Shown here one piece after another: positions 5,236 through 23,108 of a DNA stretch of 64,000 nt. The stretch lies in the NCBI GenBank assembly GCA_046290225.1, contig JBKAGE010000037.1, positions 1-64,000 on the forward strand. Direction: 5' to 3'. The translations under genes and the position numbers were made by a program. The stretch is from Bradymonadia bacterium (GTDB lineage: Bacteria > Myxococcota_A > Bradymonadia > UBA7976 > UBA1532). The notes beneath the pieces are model-generated. The model did not search any database. It had not been told where the DNA came from and saw only the letters and a list, made by a program, of their open reading frames with translations. The first letter of the stretch is position 1; the number at the start of each line of letters is the position of its first letter.

Positions 5236-5931
5236 TCAATCCCCGTCGGCCACCCGCAGGGTGCTCAGGATGTGCTGCATACGCGCCTCCACCTTGCTGA
5301 TGTTGGGCACGTTGTCGAGCACGATGGCCCGACGCTCACCAGAGGGAATCAGCACCAGGCGGCCACCGCGGATCAAGACGTACTCGATGACGTCGCTGAT
5401 CTCCTTGGAGATGCGCATCTGAGGGGCAGGCCAGCGCTCTACATCACCGAGGAAGCCATGGTGATGCAGGAGCTCGTTGTTCTTGATCTCCCAGTAGTTG
5501 AACCGAACCTTCACGAACACGGCGATGAAGATCATCGCAAAGCCGATGGCCCAGACAAAATAGAAGGTCGAGTTCATGAAGAGGTGCTGTTTCAGTAATG
5601 ACTGAATCATGTTCTGTATCTGTGGATAGATACTCGATAACAACCCCACGATGACCACCACAAGCACCACGACGATGCTGGTCAGCCGGGTGTAGTCGAA
5701 AGCCACCACTGACAAGTTGAAGAAGAACAGCAGCGTAAAGATCAAGCCCACCGGGCCTGGGTTCAGGAGCAAATCCGCAGGGGGCACATCGCCCACAGTG
5801 AAGTGCATGTAAAGACCCGCTGCCAGGGCAGCGATCAAGGTGGGGTAGAAGTAGATCACCGAAGGGTAGGGTCGGATCACCACTCGGGAGGGCAAGCTCC
5901 CGCTCTCGTCACCGCTCATCTCGACTCCCAT
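5236..5931 (-). CDS. Membrane protein (~4 TM helices) with a C-terminal bacterial PH-like domain
   Basis: Four hydrophobic segments followed by NYWEIKNNELLHHHGFLG...GRLVL...LDNVPN pattern. Confidence 0.6.
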   Translation of the reverse strand: MGVEMSGDESGSLPSRVVIRPYPSVIYFYPTLIAALAAGLYMHFTVGDVPPADLLLNPGPVGLIFTLLFFFNLSVVAFDYTRLTSIVVVLVVVIVGLLSSIYPQIQNMIQSLLKQHLFMNSTFYFVWAIGFAMIFIAVFVKVRFNYWEIKNNELLHHHGFLGDVERWPAPQMRISKEISDVIEYVLIRGGRLVLIPSGERRAIVLDNVPNISKVEARMQHILSTLRVADGD

Positions 5932-6053: not shown

Positions 6054-6770
6054 TCAGGGGTTGGCGGGGGCCGGTGCGGGGGCTGCAGGGGCAGGGACGG
6101 GCGCAGCAGCGGGCGCCGGAGCAGCAGCAGGTGCAGGGGCCGCGGCAGGCGCAGGCGCTGCACCAGGTACAGCTGCTGGTGCGGGGGCCGGCGCAGGGGC
6201 GTCAGGCAGGCCAGCAGGGACAACCCCACCAGGCACGACACCGCCAGGGGCGACACCGCCAGGGGCGACGCCCTGCTGGTCGAAGCCGCCGGGCAGCACC
6301 TTGATCTCCTTCACCTCTTTGCGGGTGCGCTCGTCTTCGGGGGCCACATCCTCACGGGGCAGACCCTGCACGCCCTGGAGCGGCTTCTCCTTCTCGAGCT
6401 TCAGCTGGGTCTTCTCAGCCTCTTGCTGGGCGTAGGTGCTGCGGACCTCGTCAACGTACTCGCGGCCCTTCATGTCCAGGATGGTGAAGATGAAGAACAG
6501 CGACAGGAAGATGAGGCCAAAGCCGAAGACCGCAGCGTTGAGCCGCTCGTCATGGGCCAGGTGCATGAAGAACAAGCCCACCAGCGAGGCCTTGATGGTG
6601 GCCACGAACATGGCGATGAACATGTTCAGGGGCCCGAAGTCGAACTGCGCGATCCACACCGTGACGAAGGTGAGGAACAAAAGCGCACCGAAGACCTTCA
6701 GGTACAGCGACATAGGGGCGACGTGATCACCCAGAACGGAATGATGACCGTGATCGGCGTTGTGGCTCAT
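6054..6770 (-). CDS. ctaF: Cytochrome c oxidase subunit IV (caa3 type) with a long low-complexity C-terminal extension
   Basis: YLKVFGALLFLTFVTV...IATIKA-like VATIKASLVGLFFMHL motif; last gene of the oxidase cluster. Confidence 0.85.
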   Translation of the reverse strand: MSHNADHGHHSVLGDHVAPMSLYLKVFGALLFLTFVTVWIAQFDFGPLNMFIAMFVATIKASLVGLFFMHLAHDERLNAAVFGFGLIFLSLFFIFTILDMKGREYVDEVRSTYAQQEAEKTQLKLEKEKPLQGVQGLPREDVAPEDERTRKEVKEIKVLPGGFDQQGVAPGGVAPGGVVPGGVVPAGLPDAPAPAPAPAAVPGAAPAPAAAPAPAAAPAPAAAPVPAPAAPAPAPANP

Positions 6771-6783
6771 GTGTCAGCCCCTC

Positions 6784-7434
6784 TCAAACCAGATAAAGCA
6801 GCGGGAACAGGTAGATCCAGATGAGGTCCACCAGGTGCCAGTACAGGGCCCCGATCTCCACGGGGGTGTAGTAGTCCTGGTAGAAGTGGCCCTTCATGGC
6901 CTTGAACATCACCCAGGTCAGCATGCACATGCCCAGCACCACATGGATGCCGTGCAGGCCAGTCATCATGAAGTAGATGCTGAAGAAGATGTGGGCCTTG
7001 GCCTCTTTGATCCCGGCGAAGTCGTACAACGGCCCTGGCAGCATGCCCTCGTGAATCTTGTGGCTGTACTCGAAGTACTTCACCACGAGGAACCCGCCTG
7101 CGAGCAGGATCGTCAGGGCGAGCAGGCCGACAATCTGGCCATTCTTCTCGCCATTCTTGTTGGTCTGTGCGGCGCGCACGGACAACACAGCGGTGAGGGA
7201 GCTGGTGATCAGCAACCCGGTGTTCACCGTACCGAGCTGCCAGTTGAGGGTGGCCGAAGCCTCCTTCCACATCTCGGGGTACAGATCTTTGAAGATCGCG
7301 TAGGCCACGAAGAGCCCGCCGAAGAGCAGGATCTCGGTGACCAGAAACAGCCACATGCCCAGCTTGGCGGAGTTGAACTCCTGCTTCGCTGACTCAAAGT
7401 GGTGGCCGACCTCATGCTTGACGATGCTGCTCAT
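6784..7434 (-). CDS. ctaE: Cytochrome c oxidase subunit III (short form)
   Basis: LGMWLFLVTEILLFGGLF, TGLHGIHV, LYWHLVDLIWIYLFPLLY; start 7434 preferred over 7473. Confidence 0.93.
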   Translation of the reverse strand: MSSIVKHEVGHHFESAKQEFNSAKLGMWLFLVTEILLFGGLFVAYAIFKDLYPEMWKEASATLNWQLGTVNTGLLITSSLTAVLSVRAAQTNKNGEKNGQIVGLLALTILLAGGFLVVKYFEYSHKIHEGMLPGPLYDFAGIKEAKAHIFFSIYFMMTGLHGIHVVLGMCMLTWVMFKAMKGHFYQDYYTPVEIGALYWHLVDLIWIYLFPLLYLV

Positions 7435-7572
7435 CTGCTCTCTTGTGGCCTCTCTGAAGAGGGTGGCACCCATCGCTGGGCAGCAGGTGTTTAAAAGGGT
7501 ACGCGTTCGATTTCAAGCGCCGTTGCACACTGCCAGAAGCCTGTGTGCTCCGGTGCGGGCTCCAAACATCAC

Positions 7573-9210
<1,638 letters not shown>

Positions 9211-9228: not shown

Positions 9229-10314
9229 TTACTTGAGGGTCTTCATCCAGCTGATCAGATCGTCGATCTGATCATCGCTGAGCTGGCCTTTGAACGACGG
9301 CATACCCCCGGCATACCCCTCCACCAGCTTGGCGTTGGGCTCCAGGATGGATTCCCGAATGTAGTTCTCGTCCACCTTCACCGGATCCATGCCGGTGATC
9401 TTCTCCATGCGGCCGTAGAGGCCCTTGAAAGAGGGGCCCACCAGACGGTTGCCGTCCAGGGTGTGGCAGCTCTTGCAGAGGCCATCGTACACCTTCTTGG
9501 CGCGGGCGATGGGATCTTGAGGACCGAAGCCGGTCTTCTTCATCCGCAGCTCGTACTCGTCCTGGGGCAGGACGACCACGGTGGCGAGCATGGCGCTGTG
9601 GCTGGTGCCGCAGTACTCGGTGCAGTACACCTGGTACTGGGGGAGCATGGGCATGCTGGCCTTGGGCTCGGGGGCCGGCTGCTTCTTGGCGATGGCAGCC
9701 TTCATGGCGTCGAAGTCGGCCTTGGCGTCGGGGTACTTCTTCCAGTACTCCGCCACGGTGTTGGCCTTGGCCTCGAACCAGACGCTGCTGTAACGACCAG
9801 GGACCACATCCTGCTTCACCCGGAAGGCGGGCACGTAGAAGGAGTGGATGACGTCTTTGGAGTTCATGACCAGCTTCACCGGCTTGCCTTCGGGCACGAA
9901 GAGCTCACCGGGGGTCTGATCGCCATTGGAGTACTTGAACGACCAGCTCCACTTCTGGGCTGTGGCCTTGATCTCCATGGCGTCCACAGGGGCGACGTGC
10001 AGATCCATGAACACGTTGAAGCCCCAGACGAAGATACCCAACACGAGAATTGTGGGGATACCTGTCCAGAGGATCTCGATCTTTGTGCTGTGGGCGATCT
10101 GGCTTGTTGCAAGCTGATCGGCATCACGACGGCGGTACTTGGCGACCAGGTACACCACCGCGAATGTGATCAGCAGGAAGAAGAAGACGCAGATCCAGTA
10201 GATCCCGTAGTACAGATCGTCGACGCCCTCGGCCACCGTGGAGGCCTGCGGGGGCATCCACAAGGTGGCGTCGGCCACGGCGTTGGTGCCTTCGGCTCCT
10301 GTCTCCATCACCAC
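9229..10314 (-). CDS. ctaC: Cytochrome c oxidase subunit II fused to cytochrome c (caa3)
   Basis: Two TM helices, EILWT, DVIHSF, CuA motif CTEYCGTSHSAM, C-terminal CKSCH and MPSF. Confidence 0.95.
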   Translation of the reverse strand: MVMETGAEGTNAVADATLWMPPQASTVAEGVDDLYYGIYWICVFFFLLITFAVVYLVAKYRRRDADQLATSQIAHSTKIEILWTGIPTILVLGIFVWGFNVFMDLHVAPVDAMEIKATAQKWSWSFKYSNGDQTPGELFVPEGKPVKLVMNSKDVIHSFYVPAFRVKQDVVPGRYSSVWFEAKANTVAEYWKKYPDAKADFDAMKAAIAKKQPAPEPKASMPMLPQYQVYCTEYCGTSHSAMLATVVVLPQDEYELRMKKTGFGPQDPIARAKKVYDGLCKSCHTLDGNRLVGPSFKGLYGRMEKITGMDPVKVDENYIRESILEPNAKLVEGYAGGMPSFKGQLSDDQIDDLISWMKTLK

Positions 10315-10327
10315 ACTCCAGGGCGCT

Positions 10328-11263
10328 TCAAACGCCCGTCGCTTCTTTGCTCATCGACTCAGAGCCCTCATCGCCCTGAGTGAAGTCACCCTGACTTTGG
10401 GCACGACGCGCACGCTTCTCGCGTCGCCTGAGCACAAAAATCAAACTGCCAAGTATGGCGATGGTCAGCAGCCCTCCGAGCCGCATCACACCCCATACGT
10501 AGATTCCGTATTTCTTGGAGTCCGGGTTGTAGTGGAAGCACGTGAGCAAAAACTGCTCGATGGTGCTGCCCAACTCACCGTCTCCAGATTCGACCAGCGC
10601 CATACGGAGCTGATCAGAGGGGAACTGAATCCCGTAGAGGTAGCGAGCGATGGTGCCGTCGGGGGTGGCCAGCAGAATGGCAGCGCCATGGGCATACTGC
10701 TTCTGTGACGGGTCCCACTTGTAACCAAAGCCCACGTCCTCGGCGAGGCGCTTGAGGTTGGCCTGCTTCCCCGTGAGGAAGTGCCAGCCTTCAGCGGCCT
10801 CAGGGCGGCCCAGAGCCTCGATGTAGGTCTCTTTCTTCGCCGCCGCCAGCGTGTGCTCTTCACGATGGTTGATCGTGAAGTTGAGCACCGTGAAATCCTT
10901 GCCTGGGGTCCACTCCAGGCCCTTCATGCCTTCGAGGGCCCCGTTGAGGACCAGCCCGCACAGCATCGGACATTCGTAATAACCGGGGATCAGGATCACC
11001 GGCTTGTCGCCCTGCTCGAAGTAGCTGCCGAGCGTCACGGTCTTGCCGTGCTCGTCCACCAGCTCGAGATCGAGGGGCAACTTCTCGCCGATGTGCTCCA
11101 CCACCTCGACCCCATCAAACTCCTTGGGTTTGATGTTGAGCTGAGCCTCCGCCTGAGGGATCGCGGCGACCGTCACTGCCACAGCGGCGATGAACATCGC
11201 AACCAGGCTGGCCGCTGCCCTCATGGGGACTGCGCTCAAAGTTGGGGTGAGGCGACGAGACAT
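10328..11263 (-). CDS. SCO1/SenC copper chaperone
   Basis: YYECPMLC (CxxxC), WHFLTG, QYAH; C-terminal TM helix; lies between the act and oxidase genes. Confidence 0.9.
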   Translation of the reverse strand: MSRRLTPTLSAVPMRAAASLVAMFIAAVAVTVAAIPQAEAQLNIKPKEFDGVEVVEHIGEKLPLDLELVDEHGKTVTLGSYFEQGDKPVILIPGYYECPMLCGLVLNGALEGMKGLEWTPGKDFTVLNFTINHREEHTLAAAKKETYIEALGRPEAAEGWHFLTGKQANLKRLAEDVGFGYKWDPSQKQYAHGAAILLATPDGTIARYLYGIQFPSDQLRMALVESGDGELGSTIEQFLLTCFHYNPDSKKYGIYVWGVMRLGGLLTIAILGSLIFVLRRREKRARRAQSQGDFTQGDEGSESMSKEATGV

Positions 11264-11270
11264 GACGAGA

Positions 11271-11627
11271 TCAGAGCCCCTCTTTGGCCACGGCCTTCAT
11301 GGCCTGCTCGATGGGGATCTGGTAGCGACCGTTCTCGAGCTTCTTGTACCCGGTGAGGGCCTCGTTCTCGGTCTTTTCGAGGGCCTCGAGCTCGTTCCCG
11401 ATCTGGGAGCGGGCGTAAACCTTCGTCTCTTCTTCGCTGTCGATGGCTTTGAAGAAGTAGGCGGTGAGGCCACCGATCGACAGGATGACCAGCAGCAACA
11501 TCACCATGCCCCACCCGAAGAGGAGGCCGGGGTTCACCTGGTCGGGCTCCGCTGCAACGGTGCCGTGGTGGTCATGATCGTGATCGTCATGGCCGTGATC
11601 AGCGTGCGTGGCATCAGACATTGTCAT
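11271..11627 (-). CDS. actG: Alternative complex III small subunit (ActG-like)
   Basis: Single TM helix; YQIPIEQAMK tail; position after actF; His-rich N-terminus; start may be 11621. Confidence 0.65.
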   Translation of the reverse strand: MTMSDATHADHGHDDHDHDHHGTVAAEPDQVNPGLLFGWGMVMLLLVILSIGGLTAYFFKAIDSEEETKVYARSQIGNELEALEKTENEALTGYKKLENGRYQIPIEQAMKAVAKEGL

Positions 11628-12840
11628 ACTCCATCGATGCGATCAGCTGCGGATCCTTGTGAGCCACGATGGCGCCGCTGGCAAACCGGCGTGCGTACAT
11701 CGCGACGAAGATGCCACCCATGCCCACCCACGTGGCCACGTTGAGCCAGTGGAAGTGGGGACCGCCGTGACCAGCGCCCTCGTGGGGCATGGTGGGCATG
11801 ACCACATAGTACAGGTCCAGGTAGTGAAGGACCAGCAGCCATGCAGAGACAAGGCCGAGGACCTTCCGGTTGCGCTTCATGTGCCGACTCATCAGCACAA
11901 AGAAGGGGGCAAGGAAGTGCCCAAAGGCGAGAACCCAGAAAAGGTTCTCCCAACCGTTATGTTTACGCATAAAGAACCATGCAGTCTCTTCGGGAATGTT
12001 CGCGTACCAGATGAGCATGTACTGGCTGAACGACACATAGGCCCAGAAGATGACGAAACCGAACAGCATCTTGCCCACATCGTGCAGGTTGCCCACGGTG
12101 ATCGTGTTGGTCAAAGCGCCATTGCTCTGCAGCCACATCGAAGAGAGCCCCAGGCAGGCGTAAAGCGACACCATGCAGCCCGCAAAGGTGTAGACACCGA
12201 ACATGGTGCTGAACCAGTGGGGATCGGTGCTCATGAGCCAGTCGAAGGCGGCGAAGGTGACGCTCATGGCGGTGAACATCATGAGCACCGGGGCCGCACG
12301 ACGCATCTTGTGGGTGTGCTTGGGATCGCCGTCGGCATCCTGAGCGACGCTCTGGGTCCGGAAGAACCAGGCGGCGCCGGAGAGCACCACGAGGTAGAAG
12401 ATCGCCCGGCCGATGAAGAAGCCCGAGTTCAAGTACCCTGCCTTGTGCTGCAGGATCTTGTCGGTGGCCATCACGTCTTCGTGGGTCCAGTGGTAGAGGT
12501 GGTGCATGCCGATGATGACCGGGATGAACAACACCGCCATCACGGGCAGGTTGAAGGCGAAGTTCTCCGCGAGCCGGCGCAGACCGGCGCTCCAGCTGCC
12601 GCGGCTCAGGTGGTGGAACAGCACGAAGACGAGACCGCCCACGGCGATGCTGAACCAGAAGAAGAACGACACGAGCCACGAGAAGTAGAAGTTGTTCTGC
12701 GTGCCCTCGTCACCGCCGAGGCCAACACCGAGGCTGGCGCCGAGGCCGACGATCCCGAGGCCGAGGCCGATGTTGAACACCGGCTTCCAGACCGAGGCGT
12801 CGAGTGTGGGCTTATCTGAGAAGGTCTTGTGGTGTCCCAT
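11614..12840 (-). CDS. actF: Alternative complex III membrane subunit F
   Basis: ~10 TM helices; LYHW, DWLMSTDPHWFSTMFG, HDVGK, FSQYMLIWYANIPEE. Confidence 0.9.
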   Translation of the reverse strand: MGHHKTFSDKPTLDASVWKPVFNIGLGLGIVGLGASLGVGLGGDEGTQNNFYFSWLVSFFFWFSIAVGGLVFVLFHHLSRGSWSAGLRRLAENFAFNLPVMAVLFIPVIIGMHHLYHWTHEDVMATDKILQHKAGYLNSGFFIGRAIFYLVVLSGAAWFFRTQSVAQDADGDPKHTHKMRRAAPVLMMFTAMSVTFAAFDWLMSTDPHWFSTMFGVYTFAGCMVSLYACLGLSSMWLQSNGALTNTITVGNLHDVGKMLFGFVIFWAYVSFSQYMLIWYANIPEETAWFFMRKHNGWENLFWVLAFGHFLAPFFVLMSRHMKRNRKVLGLVSAWLLVLHYLDLYYVVMPTMPHEGAGHGGPHFHWLNVATWVGMGGIFVAMYARRFASGAIVAHKDPQLIASMEYDNV

Positions 12841-12841
12841 C

Positions 12842-13456
12842 TTACTGCCTCCCTCGCTCTTCCGCGGGCACGTCTGCAGCGCTGGCGAACTGGCTGCGCT
12901 GGAGCGCCCGAATGTAGGCCACGATGGCCCAGCGATCCTCGGTGGGGATCTGGTGCCGGTAGGCGGGCATGGTGCGCACGCCGTTGCTGATCACGTGGTA
13001 CAGCTCGCCCACGGGCATGGCCCGGAGACGATCCTGATGGTAGGTGGGCGGGGGCACGAGGCCACGGGAGACCACCACGCCCTTGCCGGCGCCGGTCTTG
13101 TCGTGACAGGGGGAGCAGTAGATGTTGTACCGCTCCTGGCCCCACGTCAGCACGTCCATGTCCACGGCGATGGGCAAGGTGGTGACGAAGTTCCCCTCGG
13201 CATCTCTGCCGCGGTAGAGGGCGTCGTCGGCCTTGAGCATGCCCCGCGCCACGGTGCCCCGAGGGGGGACCCGCATGGTGCGCGCGTCGTCGAAGATCTT
13301 GCTCTGCCCGAAGGGCATGTACTTGTCCTGGAAGTCCATGTTCTGGTTCAGGTGAACCGGAGGCTCCCGGGAGACCTCCCCACGACACCCGGCGAGGGCG
13401 GTGAGGGCCACCGTGGCGACGAGTACGCTCTGGAACGCCTTACGCAAAGAGTTCAT
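12842..13456 (-). CDS. actE: Alternative complex III monoheme cytochrome c lipoprotein
   Basis: Start at MNSLRK (13456); lipobox LAGC; GQERYNIYCSPCH; MPAY; DRWAIVAYIRALQ. Confidence 0.9.
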   Translation of the reverse strand: MNSLRKAFQSVLVATVALTALAGCRGEVSREPPVHLNQNMDFQDKYMPFGQSKIFDDARTMRVPPRGTVARGMLKADDALYRGRDAEGNFVTTLPIAVDMDVLTWGQERYNIYCSPCHDKTGAGKGVVVSRGLVPPPTYHQDRLRAMPVGELYHVISNGVRTMPAYRHQIPTEDRWAIVAYIRALQRSQFASAADVPAEERGRQ

Positions 13457-13461
13457 GGCGA

Positions 13462-13990
13462 TCAGTCCTCCACCAGGGTGACGTTGCGCCCCCCGAGCTT
13501 CTCGAGGGCGGCACGGCTCATGTCGACGCTGAACTTCGGGTCTTTCGACTCGATGGTCATGAAGAAGGCGTCGTCGGTGACCCGCTTGAACCGCTCGATG
13601 CGGTCGAGGGGGTGGTAAGGCCGAGGCAACTTGTTGAGGGCGAACATGCCGAAGACGGTGCCGAAGGCGCTCAACAGCACGGTGAGCTCGAACATGATGG
13701 GCATGCCGAACTCCCAGGCGAAGAGCGGCTTGCCGCCGATGACCAGGGGGTAGTCCACGGCGCCGGTCCACCACTGGAGCAGCACGGCGCAGGTGAGCCC
13801 GGTGAGGCCCATGGCCAGCGCGATCCACGGCACCTTGGAGCCGCCGAGGCCCATGGCATCGTCCATCCCGTGGATCGGGAAGGGAGACCACGTCTCGAAC
13901 TTGGTGTAGCCCTGCTCTCGCAGCGATTGAGCGGCTTCGAGCAGTCGGGCGGGGTTATCGAACTCGGCGCAGAGGCCCCAAACGCGACGA

Positions 13991-13998
<8 letters not shown>
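13462..13998 (-). CDS. actD: Alternative complex III subunit D (DUF3341 type)
   Basis: [25 protein letters not shown]. Confidence 0.9.
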
Positions 13999-15406
<1,408 letters not shown>

Positions 15407-15409
15407 GCC

Positions 15410-18400
15410 TCAGCCCTCCAGCTCGGGGTTGGGGTTGCTGATCTTCGCGAGGAACGAAGTGCGGTTCTTCAGGTTCAGCTCGCTGAGGATGGTGTAATCC
15501 CGCTCACGGGCCTTGGCCTTGGTCACCGCGCTGCCCTTGTTGTTGATGTCACCGAAGACGATGGCACCGGAGGGGCACGCCTGAGCGCAGGCGGTGGTGA
15601 GGTTGTCCATGATGGACTTGGCCTTGCGATCGTCAGGGGCGAGCTTGGCGTTGAGCTTCGACTTGTTGATGCGCTGCACGCAGTACGTGCACTTCTCCAT
15701 GACACCGCGGAAACGCACGGTGACGTTGGGGTTGCGCGCCATCTGAATCAGCTCGGGCCAGGACTTGGTGTAGTTGTAGAAGTTGAACCGCCGCACCTTG
15801 AAGGGGCAGTTGTTCGAGCAGTACCGGGTGCCGATGCACCGGTTGTACACCATGTCGTTGAGCCCCTCGGGGCTGTGCACGGTGGCGGCCACCGGGCACA
15901 CGTTCTCGCAGGGGGCGTTCTCGCACTGCTGACAGTTCAAGGGCTGGTGGAGCACCCGGGGGTTCTCGGCGTCGCCCTCGAAGTAGCGATCCATGCGGAT
16001 CCAGTGCAGCTCGCGACCGCGCATCACCTGGTCTTTGCCGACAGGCGGGATGCTGTTCTCGGCCTGACACGCCACGAGACAGGCGTTGCAGCCGGTGCAC
16101 TTGGTCAGGTCGATGGCCATGCCCCACTGGTAGCCCTTGGAGTAGTCGTGCTCCTTGTAGATGGCCTCCGTCGGGGGATGCACCACCGGGGCGCCCTGGG
16201 GGAAGGGCTTGCCGTGCTCGATGATCCCGGGCTTGGCGAAGTCGGGCTTCTTGGCGAAGCCGGCGATGGTGTTCTCGCGAACGAGGGGCCGGTCGACGTA
16301 GCCGGGGGCCACCTCGGGGTCGTACCCCGCCTGGCGGCCGTAGCGCTGCACACAGGCCACCTTGAAGGCGTTCCCGGTGGACTTCAGCGTGGCGCCGAAG
16401 GCGATGTCGGGGTTCGCCGCGGTGCGCATGGGGTTCACGTTGGCGCCCACAGGGCCCGAGGCGTGGTAGGTCAGGTAGCTGTTGAAGTACCGACCGAAGC
16501 CTACGGCGAGGGCCACAGTGTTGGCGGCCAGACCCGGCAGGATCCAGGCAGGCACCTTCACTGAAGCGCCGTTCACGGTGACCTCGACCTCCTGCTCGTT
16601 GGCCACGCCGAGGGCTTCGGCGGTGGCAGGGCTGAGCAGCGCGGCGTTGTCCCACGTGATCTTGGTGAGGTTGTCCGGGGTCTCCATCATCCAGCCGTTG
16701 CCGCCGAAACGCCCGTCCCACATGTGGGCGGTCTCGTAGAAGATCACCTCGAGGGCGTCTTTACTCGGCGTCTTGGGGGTGGGCCGGTTCTCGAAGAAGC
16801 TACCGGCGGGCATGCCGGGCTGAGCCGTGAGGGCGGTGAAGACGCGCTCGGCGACGACGCCGTCGTGCAGCATCTTGCGCCAGGCCTTGAAGAAGCCGTT
16901 GGACCCGAGCTTCTGCTTCCAGGCGCCGCGGACCACGTCGTGGCTGCTGGTCTTCTCGTCACCGAGCAGCATGGCCAGGACCTCGACGTCGGCCTTGGCG
17001 CCGAAGATGGGGTCGATGAGCGGCTGCTGGATGCTCACGGTGCCGTCGGTGGCGGTGATGTCACCCCAGCTCTCGAGGAAGTGCGCCCGGGGGAACACGT
17101 GGGTGCTCGCCGCGGCGGTCTCGTCGATGATGGCCTCGAGATCCCGATCGCTCTGGTTGGGGAACTCTTCGACGTGCTTCACCTGAGGCGCGTGATGGCT
17201 GAAGGTGATGCGGGTCTTGGCCTTGGCGAAGGCCTCGGCCACCTTCACGTCGCCGGGGGCGGTGAAGAGCGGGTTGGTGCCGAGGTTGATCACCGTGGTG
17301 AACTTGCCGCTGTTGAGGCCCTCGACGAGGCGCTTCAGGTTGTCGGCGTCGCCGATCTCGAGCACGGGCCGACGGGTGTCGGGGTAGTACTGGACCAGGC
17401 TGCCGTGGGCGGCGAGGGCGCCGTTGATGAGCACGGCGAGGGCGTGCACCGCCGGGGACTGCCGGCGGCCGGCGAAGACGATGGCGCGCTTGCGGGCCTT
17501 GAGCAGGTCAGCGACGAGGACCTTGACGAACTTGGCCTCTTCTTCGCTGAGCTTCGCGGCGCCGTACTGGTCGATGAACTTCTCGGTGCCGACGGCGAAG
17601 GCGGCCTTGCCATCCTTGAGGCCCTTGGCCACGGCCCAGGCGATGGCCTCGACGCGGCTGGCGGGCACCCGGAGGCGGTGCTCGGCGTTGGTACCGGTGG
17701 TGCTGTAGAGGCCCTCGACGGCGTACAGGCGGCTCATGTTCTCCGCCTGCTTGGCGGGGCTCATCTTCCGCAGCCGCTCGATGTCGCGGGTGGCACCCCA
17801 GAGCTTGCCGTTGCGCACCGACTCACCCTCGGAGTGGAGGAAGTCGGAGTCGAAGGACACCAGGACCCGCGCCCGGTCGAAGCGGTACTGGGGGATGGAG
17901 GCGGTGCCGAGGACGGCCTTGATGCCCGCCCGCTGGTTGTCTTCGCTGATACCCTCGTAGGTGAACCACTTCGCCTGGTTCAGGTCACCCTGGAGCACCC
18001 GCTTGCGCAGAGCATCGAGGGTGGGCGAGGCCTTGGCGCCGGCGATGATGGCCAGGCCCTGGCCCTTGCTGGCCCGCAGAGCCTCGAAGGTCTTCTTGAG
18101 GGCGGCCTCGCCAGCAGCCCAGTCCACGGACTCGCCGTTGACGACGGGGCGGGTGAGGCGCGAGGGATCATAGAGCTCGTGAATCTGCGCCAGGTGAGGG
18201 GCGGCGCAGGCGCCGAAGCTGCTGGTGTGCTCCGGGTGGCCCTCGATCTTCGTGGGGCGGCCCTCGTGGCTCTCCACGATGAGGCCCATGGCCCGGCCGT
18301 TCACCTGAGCGGCGGTGGCGTAGAACTGAGGCACGCCGGGGACGAGATCCTCAGGGGCCTTGCTGTAAGGCAGGATCTTGTCTTCGGGGCGGCGGACGCA

Positions 18401-18649
18401 GCCCGCGAGACCCGCGGCGGCGACGCCCATACCCACGGCGCCCATGAAGCCACGACGGGTCTGACCACCGCCAGTAGCGATCTGCGCACCACCGTCCTCG
18501 GGGACCTCGGGAGACAGGCCGCCGTGCTTCTCGAAGTCGATCGGCAGCTTGTCGGCGAACTCTTTGGCCTCGGCCTCAGCGAAGGCCTCCGTGCCGTGCA
18601 GCTCGTCGAGGCTGCGCCAGTAGCGACGATTCTTGGTCTTCGTGTTCAT
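15410..18649 (-). CDS. actB: Alternative complex III subunit B (molybdopterin-oxidoreductase-like domain plus Fe-S domain)
   Basis: YWRSLDEL; Tat motif TRRGFM followed by LAGC; EGRPTKIEGHPEH; CTGCNAC, CQQCENAPCENVCP, CIGTRYCSNNCP, CTYC, CAQACP; ATGA overlap with actA. Confidence 0.95.
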   Translation of the reverse strand: MNTKTKNRRYWRSLDELHGTEAFAEAEAKEFADKLPIDFEKHGGLSPEVPEDGGAQIATGGGQTRRGFMGAVGMGVAAAGLAGCVRRPEDKILPYSKAPEDLVPGVPQFYATAAQVNGRAMGLIVESHEGRPTKIEGHPEHTSSFGACAAPHLAQIHELYDPSRLTRPVVNGESVDWAAGEAALKKTFEALRASKGQGLAIIAGAKASPTLDALRKRVLQGDLNQAKWFTYEGISEDNQRAGIKAVLGTASIPQYRFDRARVLVSFDSDFLHSEGESVRNGKLWGATRDIERLRKMSPAKQAENMSRLYAVEGLYSTTGTNAEHRLRVPASRVEAIAWAVAKGLKDGKAAFAVGTEKFIDQYGAAKLSEEEAKFVKVLVADLLKARKRAIVFAGRRQSPAVHALAVLINGALAAHGSLVQYYPDTRRPVLEIGDADNLKRLVEGLNSGKFTTVINLGTNPLFTAPGDVKVAEAFAKAKTRITFSHHAPQVKHVEEFPNQSDRDLEAIIDETAAASTHVFPRAHFLESWGDITATDGTVSIQQPLIDPIFGAKADVEVLAMLLGDEKTSSHDVVRGAWKQKLGSNGFFKAWRKMLHDGVVAERVFTALTAQPGMPAGSFFENRPTPKTPSKDALEVIFYETAHMWDGRFGGNGWMMETPDNLTKITWDNAALLSPATAEALGVANEQEVEVTVNGASVKVPAWILPGLAANTVALAVGFGRYFNSYLTYHASGPVGANVNPMRTAANPDIAFGATLKSTGNAFKVACVQRYGRQAGYDPEVAPGYVDRPLVRENTIAGFAKKPDFAKPGIIEHGKPFPQGAPVVHPPTEAIYKEHDYSKGYQWGMAIDLTKCTGCNACLVACQAENSIPPVGKDQVMRGRELHWIRMDRYFEGDAENPRVLHQPLNCQQCENAPCENVCPVAATVHSPEGLNDMVYNRCIGTRYCSNNCPFKVRRFNFYNYTKSWPELIQMARNPNVTVRFRGVMEKCTYCVQRINKSKLNAKLAPDDRKAKSIMDNLTTACAQACPSGAIVFGDINNKGSAVTKAKARERDYTILSELNLKNRTSFLAKISNPNPELEG

Positions 18650-19341
18650 CGGTGGCACCCCGAGCAATGCAGCGGCGGGTTGATGTTGTTCTCTTCCTTG
18701 AGCTTCGTGCCCACGGCGAGCTGGTCACCGCCCTCGGGCTCGTACCCCATCACCGTCACCATCTCCGGCGGGCGGAGGTGGTTCTCGGGGGCCCGGTGGC
18801 ACTCGAGGCACCAGCCCATGTTGAGGGGCTGGTCCTGACGCACCTCGATCATCTGATCGATGCGGCCGTGGCAGGACTCACACCCGACGCCGGCGGCGAT
18901 GTGGGCGTTGTGCTGGAAGTAAGCGTAGTCGGGGGTCTTGTGCACCCGGACCCAGGGGATGGGCTTGCCGGAGGCGAAGCTCTCCCGCACCGGGAGCAGC
19001 TTGGGGCTCTCGGTCTTGATCTGCCCGTGGCAGTTCATGCAGGTCTGCGTGGGCGGCACCCCGGCGTGAGCACTCTTCTCCACACCGGTGTGGCAGTAAC
19101 GGCAATCGATGCCGAGGCTGCCAGCGTGGAGCTTGTGGCTGTAGGGCACCGGCTGCTTGGGCATGTAGCCCACGTCGGTGTACTTCGGTGAGAAGTAGTA
19201 CCAGACGGCGGCGATGATCATCACCGTACCGAGGCCACCAGCCACCGTCATGATGGCTGGCACCTTGTTGTGCCAGGAGGGGAAGACGAAGTGAGGTCGC
19301 CTCTCTTCGTTTCCGGCGTTGCCGTGTTCCTTTTCGCTCAT
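18646..19341 (-). CDS. actA: Alternative complex III pentaheme cytochrome c
   Basis: N-terminal TM helix; QPVPYSHKLH; five CxxCH motifs (CRYCH, CMNCH, CESCH, CLECH, CSGCH). Confidence 0.95.
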   Translation of the reverse strand: MSEKEHGNAGNEERRPHFVFPSWHNKVPAIMTVAGGLGTVMIIAAVWYYFSPKYTDVGYMPKQPVPYSHKLHAGSLGIDCRYCHTGVEKSAHAGVPPTQTCMNCHGQIKTESPKLLPVRESFASGKPIPWVRVHKTPDYAYFQHNAHIAAGVGCESCHGRIDQMIEVRQDQPLNMGWCLECHRAPENHLRPPEMVTVMGYEPEGGDQLAVGTKLKEENNINPPLHCSGCHR

Positions 19342-19495
19342 CGCTTCCAGTACCCCGTGGTGTCCGGTTGCAGTGCCAGGATGCGGCTTCGGTCGCAGTG
19401 CCTGGTCTCAGTGCCCGGGCCGACCCCTCTCTCCCGAAGGAGGTGAGGATGGGCGGGTGCCTTCACAAGAAGATCGTCTTTCGGGCGAGCGTATC

Positions 19496-19512
19496 CGCAA
19501 GGGATATGCCAG
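19496..19512 (-). promoter_or_regulatory. sigma54 -24/-12 promoter of the act/oxidase operon
   Basis: CTGGCATATCCCTTGCG with exact GG-N10-GC spacing; predicted +1 at ~19485. Confidence 0.75.
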
Positions 19513-19581
19513 CCGTTTGGGCGGCGCATATTAAGCACCGCAAGTGCCCGAAGTCCATCCCTTTTTCAGCCATGATCAGGT

Positions 19582-19614
19582 GCGGCAGAACGTCGCACCG
19601 CGGCAAATCGCCAC
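19582..19614. promoter_or_regulatory. Two tandem RegA/RegR-type boxes, candidate upstream activator sequence
   Basis: GCGGC-AGAAC-GTCGC (19582-19596) and GCGGC-AAATC-GCCAC (19600-19614), about -97 to -129 from the predicted +1. Confidence 0.6.
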
Positions 19615-19673
19615 ACCGCTTTTTGGAGGGACATACAATACTGTCACGTCACGGTCGGGCGCGGTGGGGAAGG

Positions 19674-21053
19674 CTAGGGATTATCCCCAGCAAAATCATC
19701 ATGCTCCAGGCCCCATGCCTTGAGCTTGCGCTGGAGGGTACGGCGGTTGATGTCGAGGATCCGGGCCACCCGAGTGATGTTCTTGTGGTGGGCCAGCAGC
19801 CGCTCGATGTGCCTGCGCTCCACCGCTTCGAGACTGATCTCTTCTATGACGTCGGATTGTGGCGGCGGTGGTGGCATCGTACCGGCGCTGGAGAAGGGGT
19901 TGGCGGCGAGCATCCGCCGTACGAGGGCACCATCGACGTCGCCGTCGACGGCGAAGAGCGCCACTCGACGGGCCAGGTTCACGAGCTCTCTCACGTTCCC
20001 GGGCCAGGGGTGAGCCAGCAGCGCCGCATGGGCGTCGTCGCTGAAGTTGAACGGCCCCCGGGCCACGCGATCGAGCCAGTGGGTCATGATGGGCACGATG
20101 TCGTCCCGACGCACCCGCAAGGGGGGCAGCTCGAGGGGCAGCACCTGCAACCGGTAATAGAGGTCTTCTCTGAAGCGCCCTGCTTTGACCTCCTCGTGCA
20201 ACTTGCGATGTGTGGCGGCGATCAGCCGGCCCCGGAACGACACCTCCCGGGTCTCACCCACAGGGCGGAAGCTTCGGGCTTCGAGCACGCGGAGCAGCTT
20301 CGCCTGATGCTCGATGGGCAGCTCGGCCACCTCGTCGAGAAACAGAGTGCCCTCCCCCACCTCTTCGAAAAGGCCCACCTTGCGTCGATCGGCGCCGGTA
20401 AACGCCCCTTTAGCATGGCCGAAGAGCTCCGACTCGATGAGATCAGGGGGCAGGCAGGCCATATTGATGGGGATGAAAGGCTGCGCCACTCGAGGTGACT
20501 GCTGGTGCAGAAACCGCGCGGCCACCTCTTTTCCTGTACCTGTCTCCCCTGTGAGGAGGACCGGCTCGTCTGCGCCAGCGAGCCGGGTGAGCAGCGCCCT
20601 CAGCTGCTCTGTGGCGGGGCTCTGGCCCACGAGATCCACCCCACCGGCCTCCTGGGCGGCAGCTTGCCGCAGGACCGGCGCGAGGCCATCACCGTCGACA
20701 GGCTTCATCAAGAAGGTGTACGCCCCGAGGCGCATGGCCTCTACAGCGTCGGGCACGGTGCCGTGGCCAGTGAGCACCACCACGGGCATCGAACGCCCTG
20801 GTGTCTGCCTCAACACGTCGAGGCCACCCAAACCCGGCATACGCAAATCGAGCACGGCGACGTGCGGGGCCTCGGGATCATCGTGGGCGGCGTTGAAGGC
20901 CCCGACGGCGGCTTCTCCATCGCCGAGCTGAGAGACCGAGAAACCCCTTCGCCTCAGCGCCTTGGCCATGGCAATTCGAAAGGGCTCATCGTCGTCGATG
21001 AGGAGCACGCGCAGCTTTTGAGTCGGTGCCGGATCGGTTGACGCTCGGATCAT
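19674..21053 (-). CDS. sigma54-dependent response regulator (REC-AAA+-HTH) with RegA/PrrA-like receiver and HTH
   Basis: Start 21053 (AGGAG RBS); LLIDDDEPF, VLDLRMP, KP; GETGTGKE, ESELFGHAKGAFTGA, LFLDE, WPGNVREL; C-terminal RRTLQRKL. Confidence 0.9.
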   Translation of the reverse strand: MIRASTDPAPTQKLRVLLIDDDEPFRIAMAKALRRRGFSVSQLGDGEAAVGAFNAAHDDPEAPHVAVLDLRMPGLGGLDVLRQTPGRSMPVVVLTGHGTVPDAVEAMRLGAYTFLMKPVDGDGLAPVLRQAAAQEAGGVDLVGQSPATEQLRALLTRLAGADEPVLLTGETGTGKEVAARFLHQQSPRVAQPFIPINMACLPPDLIESELFGHAKGAFTGADRRKVGLFEEVGEGTLFLDEVAELPIEHQAKLLRVLEARSFRPVGETREVSFRGRLIAATHRKLHEEVKAGRFREDLYYRLQVLPLELPPLRVRRDDIVPIMTHWLDRVARGPFNFSDDAHAALLAHPWPGNVRELVNLARRVALFAVDGDVDGALVRRMLAANPFSSAGTMPPPPPQSDVIEEISLEAVERRHIERLLAHHKNITRVARILDINRRTLQRKLKAWGLEHDDFAGDNP

Positions 21054-21152
21054 GACGCCATCTCCTGGTGCAGTCGATGCGATCAATGTTAGCAAGACCT
21101 GAGCCGACAATCGGCCACCCTTCAGAGAGTCGGACAGCGCAGTAGAAGGTGG

Positions 21153-23108
21153 GTGAATCCCACCCTGAAAGGGAGTAGGCTCACCACCGTGTGGATCTGC
21201 CCAGAATGCAGGACGGTTTACCGGGTGTCGGCCCCGACGTGCGAACGTGACGGGGCCCCCCTCGCTCAGGTCTTTGCCCATCAGACCCGAGGCCGCTTCC
21301 CCTTGCTCGGCAAGGTGGTGGGCGATCGCTACAGGCTCATCGGCGGCCTGGGCAAAGGCGGGCTGGGCACGGTCTACCTCGCCGAGCACCAGCACCTCGG
21401 TCACCTCTTCGCGATTAAATTTCTCGAGCTCGGCGGTGAAGAAGCCTCTGATCAGGTGAAGAAGGATCGCGATCGTCATCGTCGCGACTTCCTGAAAGAG
21501 GCCCGGGTCGCCTCCCTCATTCGCCATCCCTCAGTGGTGGGGGTGACCGACTTCGGCGAGCACGAAGATCTACCCTTCCTCGTGATGGACTATGTGCCGG
21601 GCCCCTCTCTCCTCCAGGAGATGGAGCGCAAGGGGCGGTTCTCGTACAAAGAGGCCTGCGACATCGCCCTGCGCATCGCCGAGGCCCTCAACGCCTTCCA
21701 TGAGCGGCGCCTCGTTCACCGCGACCTCAAGCCGGCGAACCTGATCCTCGATCCCCGCGAAGACGGCCGCCTCACCCTGGTGGACCTGGGCCTCGTCAAA
21801 GATCTTGCTGGCCCTGGCGGTAAAGACTCCACTCACCCCCTGGCCCTACGTGGTACGCCGGGCTACCTCGCCCCGGAGCAGGTGCCGGGCTGGGTGCTTC
21901 AGGGGGCCGGCGTCCGGGCGGTGAAGAAAGAGAAGAAGGCCGTCGATCCTCGGGTCGACATCTACGCCCTCGGCGTCATCCTCTACGAGATGCTCGCTGG
22001 AGAGCCCCCCTACCCCGACGGCTCGAACACGCAGGTCATTGTCTACGCCTGCACACAAGATCCCAAACCGCTGCACGCGCTCGATCTGCCCATTGATCAC
22101 ATCGTGAAGGCTGATCCCCCCGTGGGCCTTGAGAAGCTGGTCCTCGACACGATGTCCCGGGATCGCGACACGCGCCCCGCCTCTGCCGCAGAGTTCATCG
22201 AGCGCCTGAAGGCGACGATGGCGGAGATCGAACGCCCCGCTCCAGTGCGGGTGCCCATCAACGCCTCCGCCCTCACGGCGCTGCCGGGGCTCGCCACCCG
22301 ACCGGGGTTGCCCAGCAGCGAGACGATGCCCGACGACAGCATGGGCAGCGAATACGACACGATGGTCTTCGACACCAACGCCCACCCCGATCCGGACGAC
22401 GGCTTCGATCTCGAAGACTCCCTCGACGAAGAGGCGGCGACGGTGGCGGGCCCCATGCCCGAGATCATCGCCGAGGCCAGGGCTGCCCAGGCCGCTCAGG
22501 TGGCCCGAGAGGCTCGTGGGCTCCCCACAGAAGACGATCGCCCCGGGCCGCGGCTGGGGCTCTGGATCGGCTTGCTCGGGGTGGTGCTCGCCGCAGCGGC
22601 AGGAGTCTGGTGGGCCCTGAGCAGCAACGGCAGCGGCGATCCGGTGGATCGACAGACCATCGACAATCGGGGCCAGCTGCCCGTGGGCTCTCTCCCAGAG
22701 ACGCCAGCAACGCCCGATGCCGGTCAGCCTCAAAAGCTCGACGCTGAGTTGACGATCCCAGTCTTACCGCTGGATCCACCGGAAGAGGCGCCTGATGCTC
22801 AGGGCGCAGCGGCCTCGACCGACGCTGGGGCGTCAAAGCCGACTACCCGGCGGCGCAAGCGTCGTCGCCGCGCCACGCCACCTGTGGTCAAGGACACACC
22901 CACGGTCCCCCCACGTGGTCCCACAGATGACGAGATCCTGGTGGCGCTGCTCCGTGAGGGTGACAGCGCCTTCAAGCGGGAGTCCTATCAGCGAGCCCTG
23001 CGCAACTACCGCAAGTTTCTCGCCCGGGCACCGCAAAGCCACGCCAAGTACTTCCAGGTGAAGCAGCGCGTGCGCTCCTTGGAACAGCTCACCGCCTACG
23101 ACCGCTGA
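21153..23108 (+). CDS. Membrane Ser/Thr protein kinase with a C-terminal TPR-like region
   Basis: CPEC..CERDG N-terminus; GKGGLGTVY, AIK, HRDLKPAN, DLG, GTPGYLAPE, DIYALG; TM helix; TPR-like GDSAFKRESYQRALRNY; start may be 21189. Confidence 0.9.
   Translation: MNPTLKGSRLTTVWICPECRTVYRVSAPTCERDGAPLAQVFAHQTRGRFPLLGKVVGDRYRLIGGLGKGGLGTVYLAEHQHLGHLFAIKFLELGGEEASDQVKKDRDRHRRDFLKEARVASLIRHPSVVGVTDFGEHEDLPFLVMDYVPGPSLLQEMERKGRFSYKEACDIALRIAEALNAFHERRLVHRDLKPANLILDPREDGRLTLVDLGLVKDLAGPGGKDSTHPLALRGTPGYLAPEQVPGWVLQGAGVRAVKKEKKAVDPRVDIYALGVILYEMLAGEPPYPDGSNTQVIVYACTQDPKPLHALDLPIDHIVKADPPVGLEKLVLDTMSRDRDTRPASAAEFIERLKATMAEIERPAPVRVPINASALTALPGLATRPGLPSSETMPDDSMGSEYDTMVFDTNAHPDPDDGFDLEDSLDEEAATVAGPMPEIIAEARAAQAAQVAREARGLPTEDDRPGPRLGLWIGLLGVVLAAAAGVWWALSSNGSGDPVDRQTIDNRGQLPVGSLPETPATPDAGQPQKLDAELTIPVLPLDPPEEAPDAQGAAASTDAGASKPTTRRRKRRRRATPPVVKDTPTVPPRGPTDDEILVALLREGDSAFKRESYQRALRNYRKFLARAPQSHAKYFQVKQRVRSLEQLTAYDR

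Follow-up and report, generated by a model that had tools for sequence, protein, structure and literature searches.

We analysed a 64,000-nucleotide stretch of contig JBKAGE010000037.1 from a Bradymonadia bacterium (the window), in which the gene for a predicted sigma-54 activator with RegA-like features lies directly upstream of an operon encoding alternative complex III (ACIII) and a caa3 oxidase. The activator gene (19674..21053, minus strand) is followed, toward the operon, by two tandem boxes of the RegA/RegR type (distal GCGGC-N5-GCCAC at 19600..19614 and proximal GCGGC-N5-GTCGC at 19582..19596), a predicted sigma-70-type promoter (19528..19557, minus strand) and a predicted sigma-54 promoter of the -24/-12 type, TGGCA-N6-TTGC (19511-19497, minus strand), with a +1 expected near 19485. 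The operon, all on the minus strand, comprises actA, the multiheme cytochrome c of ACIII (18646..19341); actB, a molybdopterin-like plus Fe-S subunit (15410..18649); actC, an NrfD-family membrane subunit (13991..15406); actD (13462..13998; PF11821); actE, a monoheme cytochrome c (12842..13417, start approximate); a probable actF without a family match, placed by its position and hydrophobicity (11614..12840); a SCO1/SenC protein (10328..11263); and the caa3 oxidase subunits II, with a C-terminal cytochrome c (9229..10314), I (7573..9210; TIGR02891 over cut-off), III (6784..7473) and IV (6054..6770; TIGR02229 over cut-off). An initial annotation of the window had named this respiratory target in proposing that RegA-type DNA recognition was coupled to sigma-54 activation, and the operon, both boxes and the -24/-12 site all lie where it had placed them.

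The receiver (REC)-AAA+-HTH architecture and every peptide quoted in that annotation were recovered in the 459-aa protein, which contains Response_reg (residues 17-125), Sigma54_activat (142-308), an AAA lid and a Fis-type HTH_8 domain (408-448), with a score of 216 bits to PF00158 and a further match to PF25601. Its phosphoacceptor is D69, its AAA+ motifs are intact (Walker A GETGTGKE, GAFTGA and Walker B LFLDE), and its recognition helix reads RRTLQRK, of the RR[TS]LQR type, which is found in none of the 44 other AAA+ matches of this genome. Walker A, GAFTGA, Walker B and the lid are the features of an NtrC-type sigma-54 enhancer-binding protein, and the corresponding target features are also present: a -24/-12 promoter, tandem palindromes about 80-130 bp upstream, and rpoN in the genome. 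The protein nevertheless stays below every NCBIfam equivalog cut-off, the best being ntrC (336 vs 558.6). On the ActR/PrrA/RegA model (NF033791) its receiver scored 71.5 and its HTH 20.4 bits, short of the 250-bit cut-off that the canonical RegA of the same genome likewise misses (176.8 bits), and its length and AAA+ domain set it apart from the small REC-HTH proteins described by that model. The best PDB matches to the HTH were 3rqi and PrrA (1umq), the latter being the best named one. A search of genome contigs for loci related to the activator gave four matches at 32-36% identity, all of them unrelated activators. Judged from its sequence, the protein is a member of the sigma-54 activators with predicted RegA-like DNA recognition, yet stands outside the RegA family.

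Our phylogenetic analysis placed the receiver closer to RegA than to other activators in three trees. The first included 16 members of the activator family, 18 RegA proteins (among them Sinorhizobium meliloti ActR and an Azospirillum RegA) and 51 other receivers of this genome, namely all 16 from activators and 35 drawn at random from the rest; family and RegA together split from 50 of these 51 at 99/92, with a bootstrap that had not settled, and each formed its own clade, one very long-branched row lying inside RegA. A second tree (44 rows, mixture model), which contained NtrC, AtoC, GlrR and ZraR of Escherichia coli and NtrC and NtrX of S. meliloti, gave the same split at 98/94. RegA was always a clade of its own (100/97-99), with the activator family outside it as sister and never nested within. 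In a more stringent tree with 38 ordinary activator receivers, including the 30, out of 109, that most resemble RegA, family and RegA fell on one side in 99% of bootstrap trees. The comparison with RegA/PrrA and with NtrC, AtoC and ZraR that the initial annotation had called for leaned toward RegA for the receiver in these trees and, as described below, gave no decision for the HTH.

Four signatures, picked after the alignments had been seen, were compared among the family (n = 118, two broken or tail-less matches being dropped), RegA (n = 120) and ordinary activators (n = 114). The receiver helix 1 pattern was present in 111, 100 and 1 of these, respectively, LTG[HY]G in 117, 120 and 9, H[IT]-x7-9-N[IV][TS] in 111, 116 and 2, and the RR[TS]LQR recognition helix, carried by the activator itself, in 117, 118 and 6. 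Two further marks that had been taken as RegA-like did not hold: DDDEPF occurs in 5/118 family members and 1/120 RegA sequences, and the PPPP linker in 6/118 and 0/120.

Of 301 genomes sampled across the phylum, which the databases label Myxococcota, 30 yielded an orthologue of the activator (five candidates scored per genome); these are spread over five families. A further 19 orthologues came from 40 closer relatives, at 46-73% identity, clearly above paralogues. Named database matches were few and all from Myxococcales or Myxococcota, and a profile search of 1.84 billion representatives added about 10 family members among its best 150 matches. Synteny with the act operon also extended beyond this genome: of the 19 relatives with an orthologue, 11 have the activator gene immediately before actA, as does the distant genome G304.

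The two boxes lie 18 bp apart, centre to centre, and span -97 to -129 from the expected +1. The proximal box scored 18.3 bits with no mismatch, and the distal box 17.7 bits with one mismatch, to the RegR pattern GNGRCRTTNNGNCGC as quoted, second-hand, in PMC5506826. Single GCGGC-N5-GYCRC matches are common (306 in the 8.58-Mb genome), whereas a tandem pair within 10 bp occurs once. With a matrix trained leave-one-genome-out, so that the boxes of the window were scored by a matrix without this genome, the score of the pair was reached by none of 200 shuffles; the derived consensus is YGCG(G/A)CA-WWW-TG(C/T)CGCR. Conservation followed the activator: no shuffle out of 200 equalled the pair upstream of actA in 19 of 20 genomes with an orthologue vs 1 of 9 without, the latter (G009) being 80% complete and holding the kinase described below. 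The test left out G022, with 39 bp upstream, and G039; G030 gave a borderline result (p 0.015), its best site scoring 4.6 bits. In genomes that carry activator and act at separate places, the boxes are found at act. A weaker box proposed as autoregulatory upstream of the activator gene (CCGAC-N5-GCCAC, 21104..21118) has the letters reported, but it scored 0.7 bits, is not conserved and was rejected, the best site in 37 orthologue upstream regions reaching 9.8 bits.

The -24/-12 site follows the GAFTGA loop of the activator. Of 17 genomes whose activator has GAFTGA or GSFTGA, 16 carry a strict TGG-N8-TTGC site, and G005 has a weaker CGG form; the strict site was found in none of three genomes without the loop (two independent lineages, both retaining rpoN) and in none of eight lacking both genes. 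Between the boxes and this site lies a second element, T(G/A)GAC(T/A)-N16-17-(G/C)TA, with a -35 hexamer TGGACT at 19557-19552 and a -10 region at about 19535-19528. An E. coli consensus scan picked up no sigma-70 promoter here; the element resembles those upstream of tRNA genes of this genome (6/96 vs 0.13% of random windows), lies 42-46 bp or 55-58 bp upstream of the -24 element, and is kept in G003, G010 and G018, all without the activator, boxes and strict sigma-54 site. The co-variation of site and loop is consistent with sigma-54 control as first proposed, but the interposed sigma-70-type promoter makes it probable that the operon is not purely sigma-54 dependent.

The window contains no RegB-like kinase, and the genome-wide search suggested in the initial annotation revealed one elsewhere, on contig C38 (G000:C38:115904-117541; 37-41% identity to its orthologues, E about 1e-100), in addition to a canonical regB-regA pair on C5 (G000:C5:3892-5702, minus strand; loci L025 and L033). 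Of 18 loci in distant families, 17 have a membrane kinase gene of this type immediately before the activator gene, and the kinase is present in all 30 activator genomes; a thirty-first, G202, has an activator cut by a contig end. Of 41 closer genomes, 19 have both kinase and activator and 20 have neither, which makes 39 in agreement, the mismatches being G009 with the kinase only and G014 with the activator only. In a quick tree with 25 other kinases the catalytic domain was sister to RegB and not nested (SH-like approximate likelihood ratio, SH-aLRT, 99). A RegB membrane-domain profile ranked the C38 kinase second in this genome with 71 bits, after RegB (233) and before the next kinase (28); its membrane domain also weakly matches Pfam 6TM_PilS, as does that of RegB. 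Reference features of RegB include R31 and Q38 of transmembrane segment 1 (TM1), the GGXXNPF quinone loop and the redox cysteine Cys265 (PMC3000548; see also PMC8191878). The C38 kinase has the TM1 arginine, an exact GGXXNPF and the redox cysteine; the LRW arginine of TM1 is present in 25/25 orthologues, GGxxxP in 25/25 and the redox-box cysteine in 20/25. Likely interface residues between kinase and receiver differ between the C38-type and canonical pairs, which would fit insulated paralogues. The canonical RegB on C5 was disfavoured as the cognate kinase because the separate kinase is operonic and co-occurs with the activator, though some cross-talk may take place.

The kinase also carries a cysteine-rich insert with weak PAS matches (PAS_8 in 6/18 and PAS_4 in 4/18 members), which the shorter canonical RegB could not accommodate, and a profile search of PDB with the insert returned no match. 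Its three to four conserved cysteines (L122:2131-2481), lost in G005, G022 and G161, might form a metal or Fe-S site. A kinase/pyrophosphorylase gene (PF03618; G000:C38:117541-118425, plus strand, L122) abuts the kinase gene.

Twenty-three sites in the genome score at least 14 bits, the top one upstream of a HiPIP gene (G000:C59:49888-50286, plus strand, L143), where a partner half-site lies 18 bp away together with an AT-rich stretch and a GG-N10-GC element. Beyond the window on the same contig, cydAB (G000:C37:145853-148286, minus strand, L142) is preceded by two boxes, including a 13.7-bit site with a partner half-site and GG-N10-GC element, and by a -24/-12-like site. Box and -24/-12-like site accompany cydA in 4 of 6 activator genomes, and G032, which has RegA only, retains the box and no -24/-12-like site. 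In three genomes of family f21 a strong box and GG-N10-GC element precede a sigma-32-like gene instead of act (3/3), which suggests that the regulon differs by lineage; at these loci (L177, L178 and L182 in G256, G238 and G117) a sigma-factor cascade under this system is possible. The remaining genome-wide matches are mostly intragenic and probably due to chance.

Set beside the domains, motifs, boxes, promoter-like sites, conservation, co-occurrence and tree groupings observed here, these data suggest that the activator probably serves as response regulator in a two-component system that is the sister of RegB/RegA, and that it would bind the boxes and switch on ACIII-caa3 from the -24/-12 promoter. 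The unlinked C38 kinase would read the redox state of the quinone pool, its redox-box cysteine, or both, and, as gene order and co-occurrence imply, phosphorylate D69. Once bound to the tandem boxes as dimers, the activator would oligomerise and open the sigma-54 promoter, a step suggested by the co-conservation of these elements. By analogy with RegB, an over-reduced pool would raise quinol-to-oxygen capacity through ACIII-caa3 and, in this genome, probably also through cydAB and a HiPIP. The sigma-70-type promoter 46 bp upstream would provide basal expression, and it may also answer to box-bound protein, including canonical RegA, which apparently reads the same box.

Several observations weigh against this interpretation. 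The receiver scored higher with the FixJ model (81 bits) than with ActR/PrrA (71.5) or NtrC (66), and on the ActR model it ranks below three other receivers of the same genome. The branch that unites family and RegA in the stringent tree had a support of 74/91 and took in an unrelated activator, P0283, and approximately unbiased (AU) tests on fast trees, which had little power, rejected one of eight alternative placements of the receiver clades. The HTH tree (48 columns, five poorly aligned rows excluded) united family and RegA on one side in 43% of bootstraps and gave no resolution, and a profile of ordinary activator HTH domains scored the family at 63 and RegA at only 54. R[RK]TLQRK recurs in seven near-neighbour activators outside the family clade (P0279, P0282, P0283, P0287, P0289, P0292 and P0313), of which P0283, adjoining family and RegA in the tree, may be a deeper relative. 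In the kinases, the position of Q38 is hydrophobic (Val in the C38 kinase), the quinone loop reads GGxxNP in 2/25 and GGxxCP in 21/25, and five kinases, from family f21, lack the redox-box cysteine. G014 has an orthologue and no significant box pair, act of G161 has boxes without a strict sigma-54 site, cydA of G005 and G025 and act of the three f21 genomes lack a box, and a HiPIP was found in 0/24 family relatives. The genomes examined are also kin, and the counts therefore overstate independence.

Many of these points would be consistent with convergence, in which an ordinary NtrC/PilR-type system drifted in its helix toward RegA-like specificity and still activates act from a sigma-54 promoter without being a sister of RegB/RegA, its kinase perhaps sensing a signal other than quinone, such as a metal or thiol, through the cysteine-rich insert. 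The compatible AU placements, the HTH tree, the recurring helix motif, the insert and the loss of Q38 and mostly of N110 from the quinone site all accommodate it. We nevertheless consider convergence unlikely, because the receiver, the kinase catalytic domain and the kinase membrane domain point independently to RegA/RegB and ordinary activators almost entirely lack the four shared signatures.

It is also conceivable, and in our view decidedly improbable, that the activator works chiefly at the sigma-70-type promoter, as its activator or through a two-promoter switch, with sigma-54 activation secondary. GAFTGA has been lost in 13 of 125 homologues, in about seven separate events (at least five forced), with the recognition helix kept in all 13, and G012, G025 and G026 retain the boxes and the sigma-70-type promoter at unchanged spacing. 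A few of the genome's ordinary activators, however, have lost the loop too, GAFTGA or GSFTGA persists in the other 112 homologues, the copy in the window combines intact Walker A, Walker B and GAFTGA motifs with a near-consensus -24/-12 site, and G304 and G008 have a sigma-54 site without a -35-like hexamer. In one clade (P0066, P0067, P0070, P0094, P0110 and P0112) the loop has been deleted outright, and the Walker motifs and recognition helix remain.

A position 37-40 bp upstream of the -35 hexamer is typical of class I activators, and the proximal box starts at this distance in 11 genomes. When the act-trained matrix was applied to 16 canonical regA loci, 13 had a site of 10 bits or more close by, where 0.067 would be expected per 3.5 kb, such that activator and RegA appear to share one DNA code. 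With a canonical RegB/RegA pair in the genome, the boxes might then be read mainly by RegA at the sigma-70-type promoter, the activator acting elsewhere and another of about 40 sigma-54 activators serving the -24/-12 site, but this is very unlikely, as the act boxes persist in five genomes, 92-96% complete, in which no canonical RegA was found (G005, G011, G015, G023 and G161), are missing from G028 and G032, which have RegA without the activator, and accompany a sigma-54 site that decays where the activator loses GAFTGA, though rpoN is kept. G008 has a divergent RegA-like protein.

Within the proposed sister relationship, receiver, helix, boxes, promoter and target bear out the initial idea of RegA-type recognition on a sigma-54 activator; the idea that an AAA+ domain had been grafted into RegA is disfavoured, and a sister lineage takes its place. 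Because the family is sister to RegA and the surrounding activators have AAA+, a single loss in RegA needs fewer steps than a loss followed by a regain, and parsimony on these unrooted trees favours such a loss over a graft. The pair might even be a surviving ancestral, sigma-54-dependent form of RegB/RegA, from which RegA lost its AAA+ domain and RegB its PAS domain, although we hold this more specific history only tentatively. If true, living lineages would be replaying the transition from activator to RegA, both in the promoter with its sigma-70 and sigma-54 elements and in the repeated recent losses of GAFTGA and the -24/-12 site, in which helix and boxes survive.

The system shares with RegB/RegA (PrrB/PrrA, RegS/RegR, ActS/ActR) the grouping of receiver and kinase, the RR[TS]LQR helix, a box of the RegR pattern, the TM1 arginine, GG-x-x-x-PF loop and redox cysteine of the kinase, and respiratory targets including cydAB. 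It differs in the intact AAA+ domain and sigma-54 target of the regulator, in the PAS-like cysteine-rich insert, absence of Q38 and mostly Cys for N110 in the kinase, and in that both proteins form separate sister clades, coexist with a canonical pair and leave the NCBIfam cut-offs unmet. PilS/PilR and NtrB/NtrC combine a membrane domain, PAS, HisKA and HATPase with REC-AAA+-HTH_8. This architecture is shared here, as is a weak match of the kinase membrane domain to 6TM_PilS, whereas the RegA-type signatures are absent there and no equivalog cut-off was reached.

The nearest functional precedent is NmpR of the NmpRSTU system of Myxococcus xanthus, a REC-AAA+-HTH protein with an oxygen-utilisation regulon, sigma-54 promoters and paired 15-bp palindromes (PMC11841059). 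Architecture, predicted sigma-54 output and paired palindromes are the same, and its description shows the differences: its site, GCGCA-N5-TGCGC, differs from GCG(G/A)C-N5-G(C/T)CGC at positions 4-5 of each half, its named targets include the cbb3 oxidase and hemN among others, and its signalling chain differs from the present one (PMC11841059). The terms RegB, quinol and alternative complex are absent from that paper. In At. ferrooxidans, RegA has been reported to act at the sigma-54-dependent respiratory promoters of tet and cyd, cyd having both sigma-54 and sigma-70 promoters (PMC5506826); RegA is there a small protein in its own right, for which competition with an unrelated activator has been proposed, whereas here the activator itself carries the RegA-type domains. 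Our literature search, which covered listings and abstract openings with few subscription papers, and beyond which supplementary tables could list such a protein, found no description of an AAA+-bearing RegA relative. What is new relative to these systems is, as far as sequences indicate, a sigma-54 activator sister to RegA with its own RegB-like kinase. The conserved sigma-70-type promoter at act is an addition to the initial annotation.

The regulator of RegB/RegA, a model for global redox switches, is known as a small protein that lacks an ATPase domain, and a sister system with the same DNA code driving sigma-54 transcription would extend this switch to a new output. The activator would be a first candidate regulator of the ACIII-caa3 operon in these bacteria. 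Natural variants with and without GAFTGA, together with a promoter that combines sigma-70 and sigma-54 elements, would open the origin of RegA to direct assay, and because the cell has two paralogous regulators that apparently read the same box, the system also raises the question of cross-talk.

Some neighbouring features were also recorded. The canonical regB-regA pair on C5 forms the end of an operon of uncharacterised exported proteins, upstream of which lies a 16.4-bit box (C5:7844) with no sigma-54 site; in G304 a similar cysteine-containing gene follows a box on the regA-bearing contig, and in L150 (G038) and L151 (G031) canonical regA is directly followed by a box and a HiPIP gene, again with no sigma-54 site. 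In the window, a gene for a 231-aa membrane protein without a Pfam match (5236-5931, minus strand) comes after caa3 subunit IV as a possible further member of the operon, and a Ser/Thr protein kinase gene (21153-23108, plus strand) is divergent from the activator gene. In L011 and L012 (G013 and G021) the gene immediately before the orthologue encodes another sigma-54 activator, of the ordinary kind. In genus g65 the activator is often followed by nnrS (PF05940), confirmed at L061:8897-10081 and called by similarity of their starts at L041, L042, L043, L047, L048 and L053, which hints at a link with nitric oxide.

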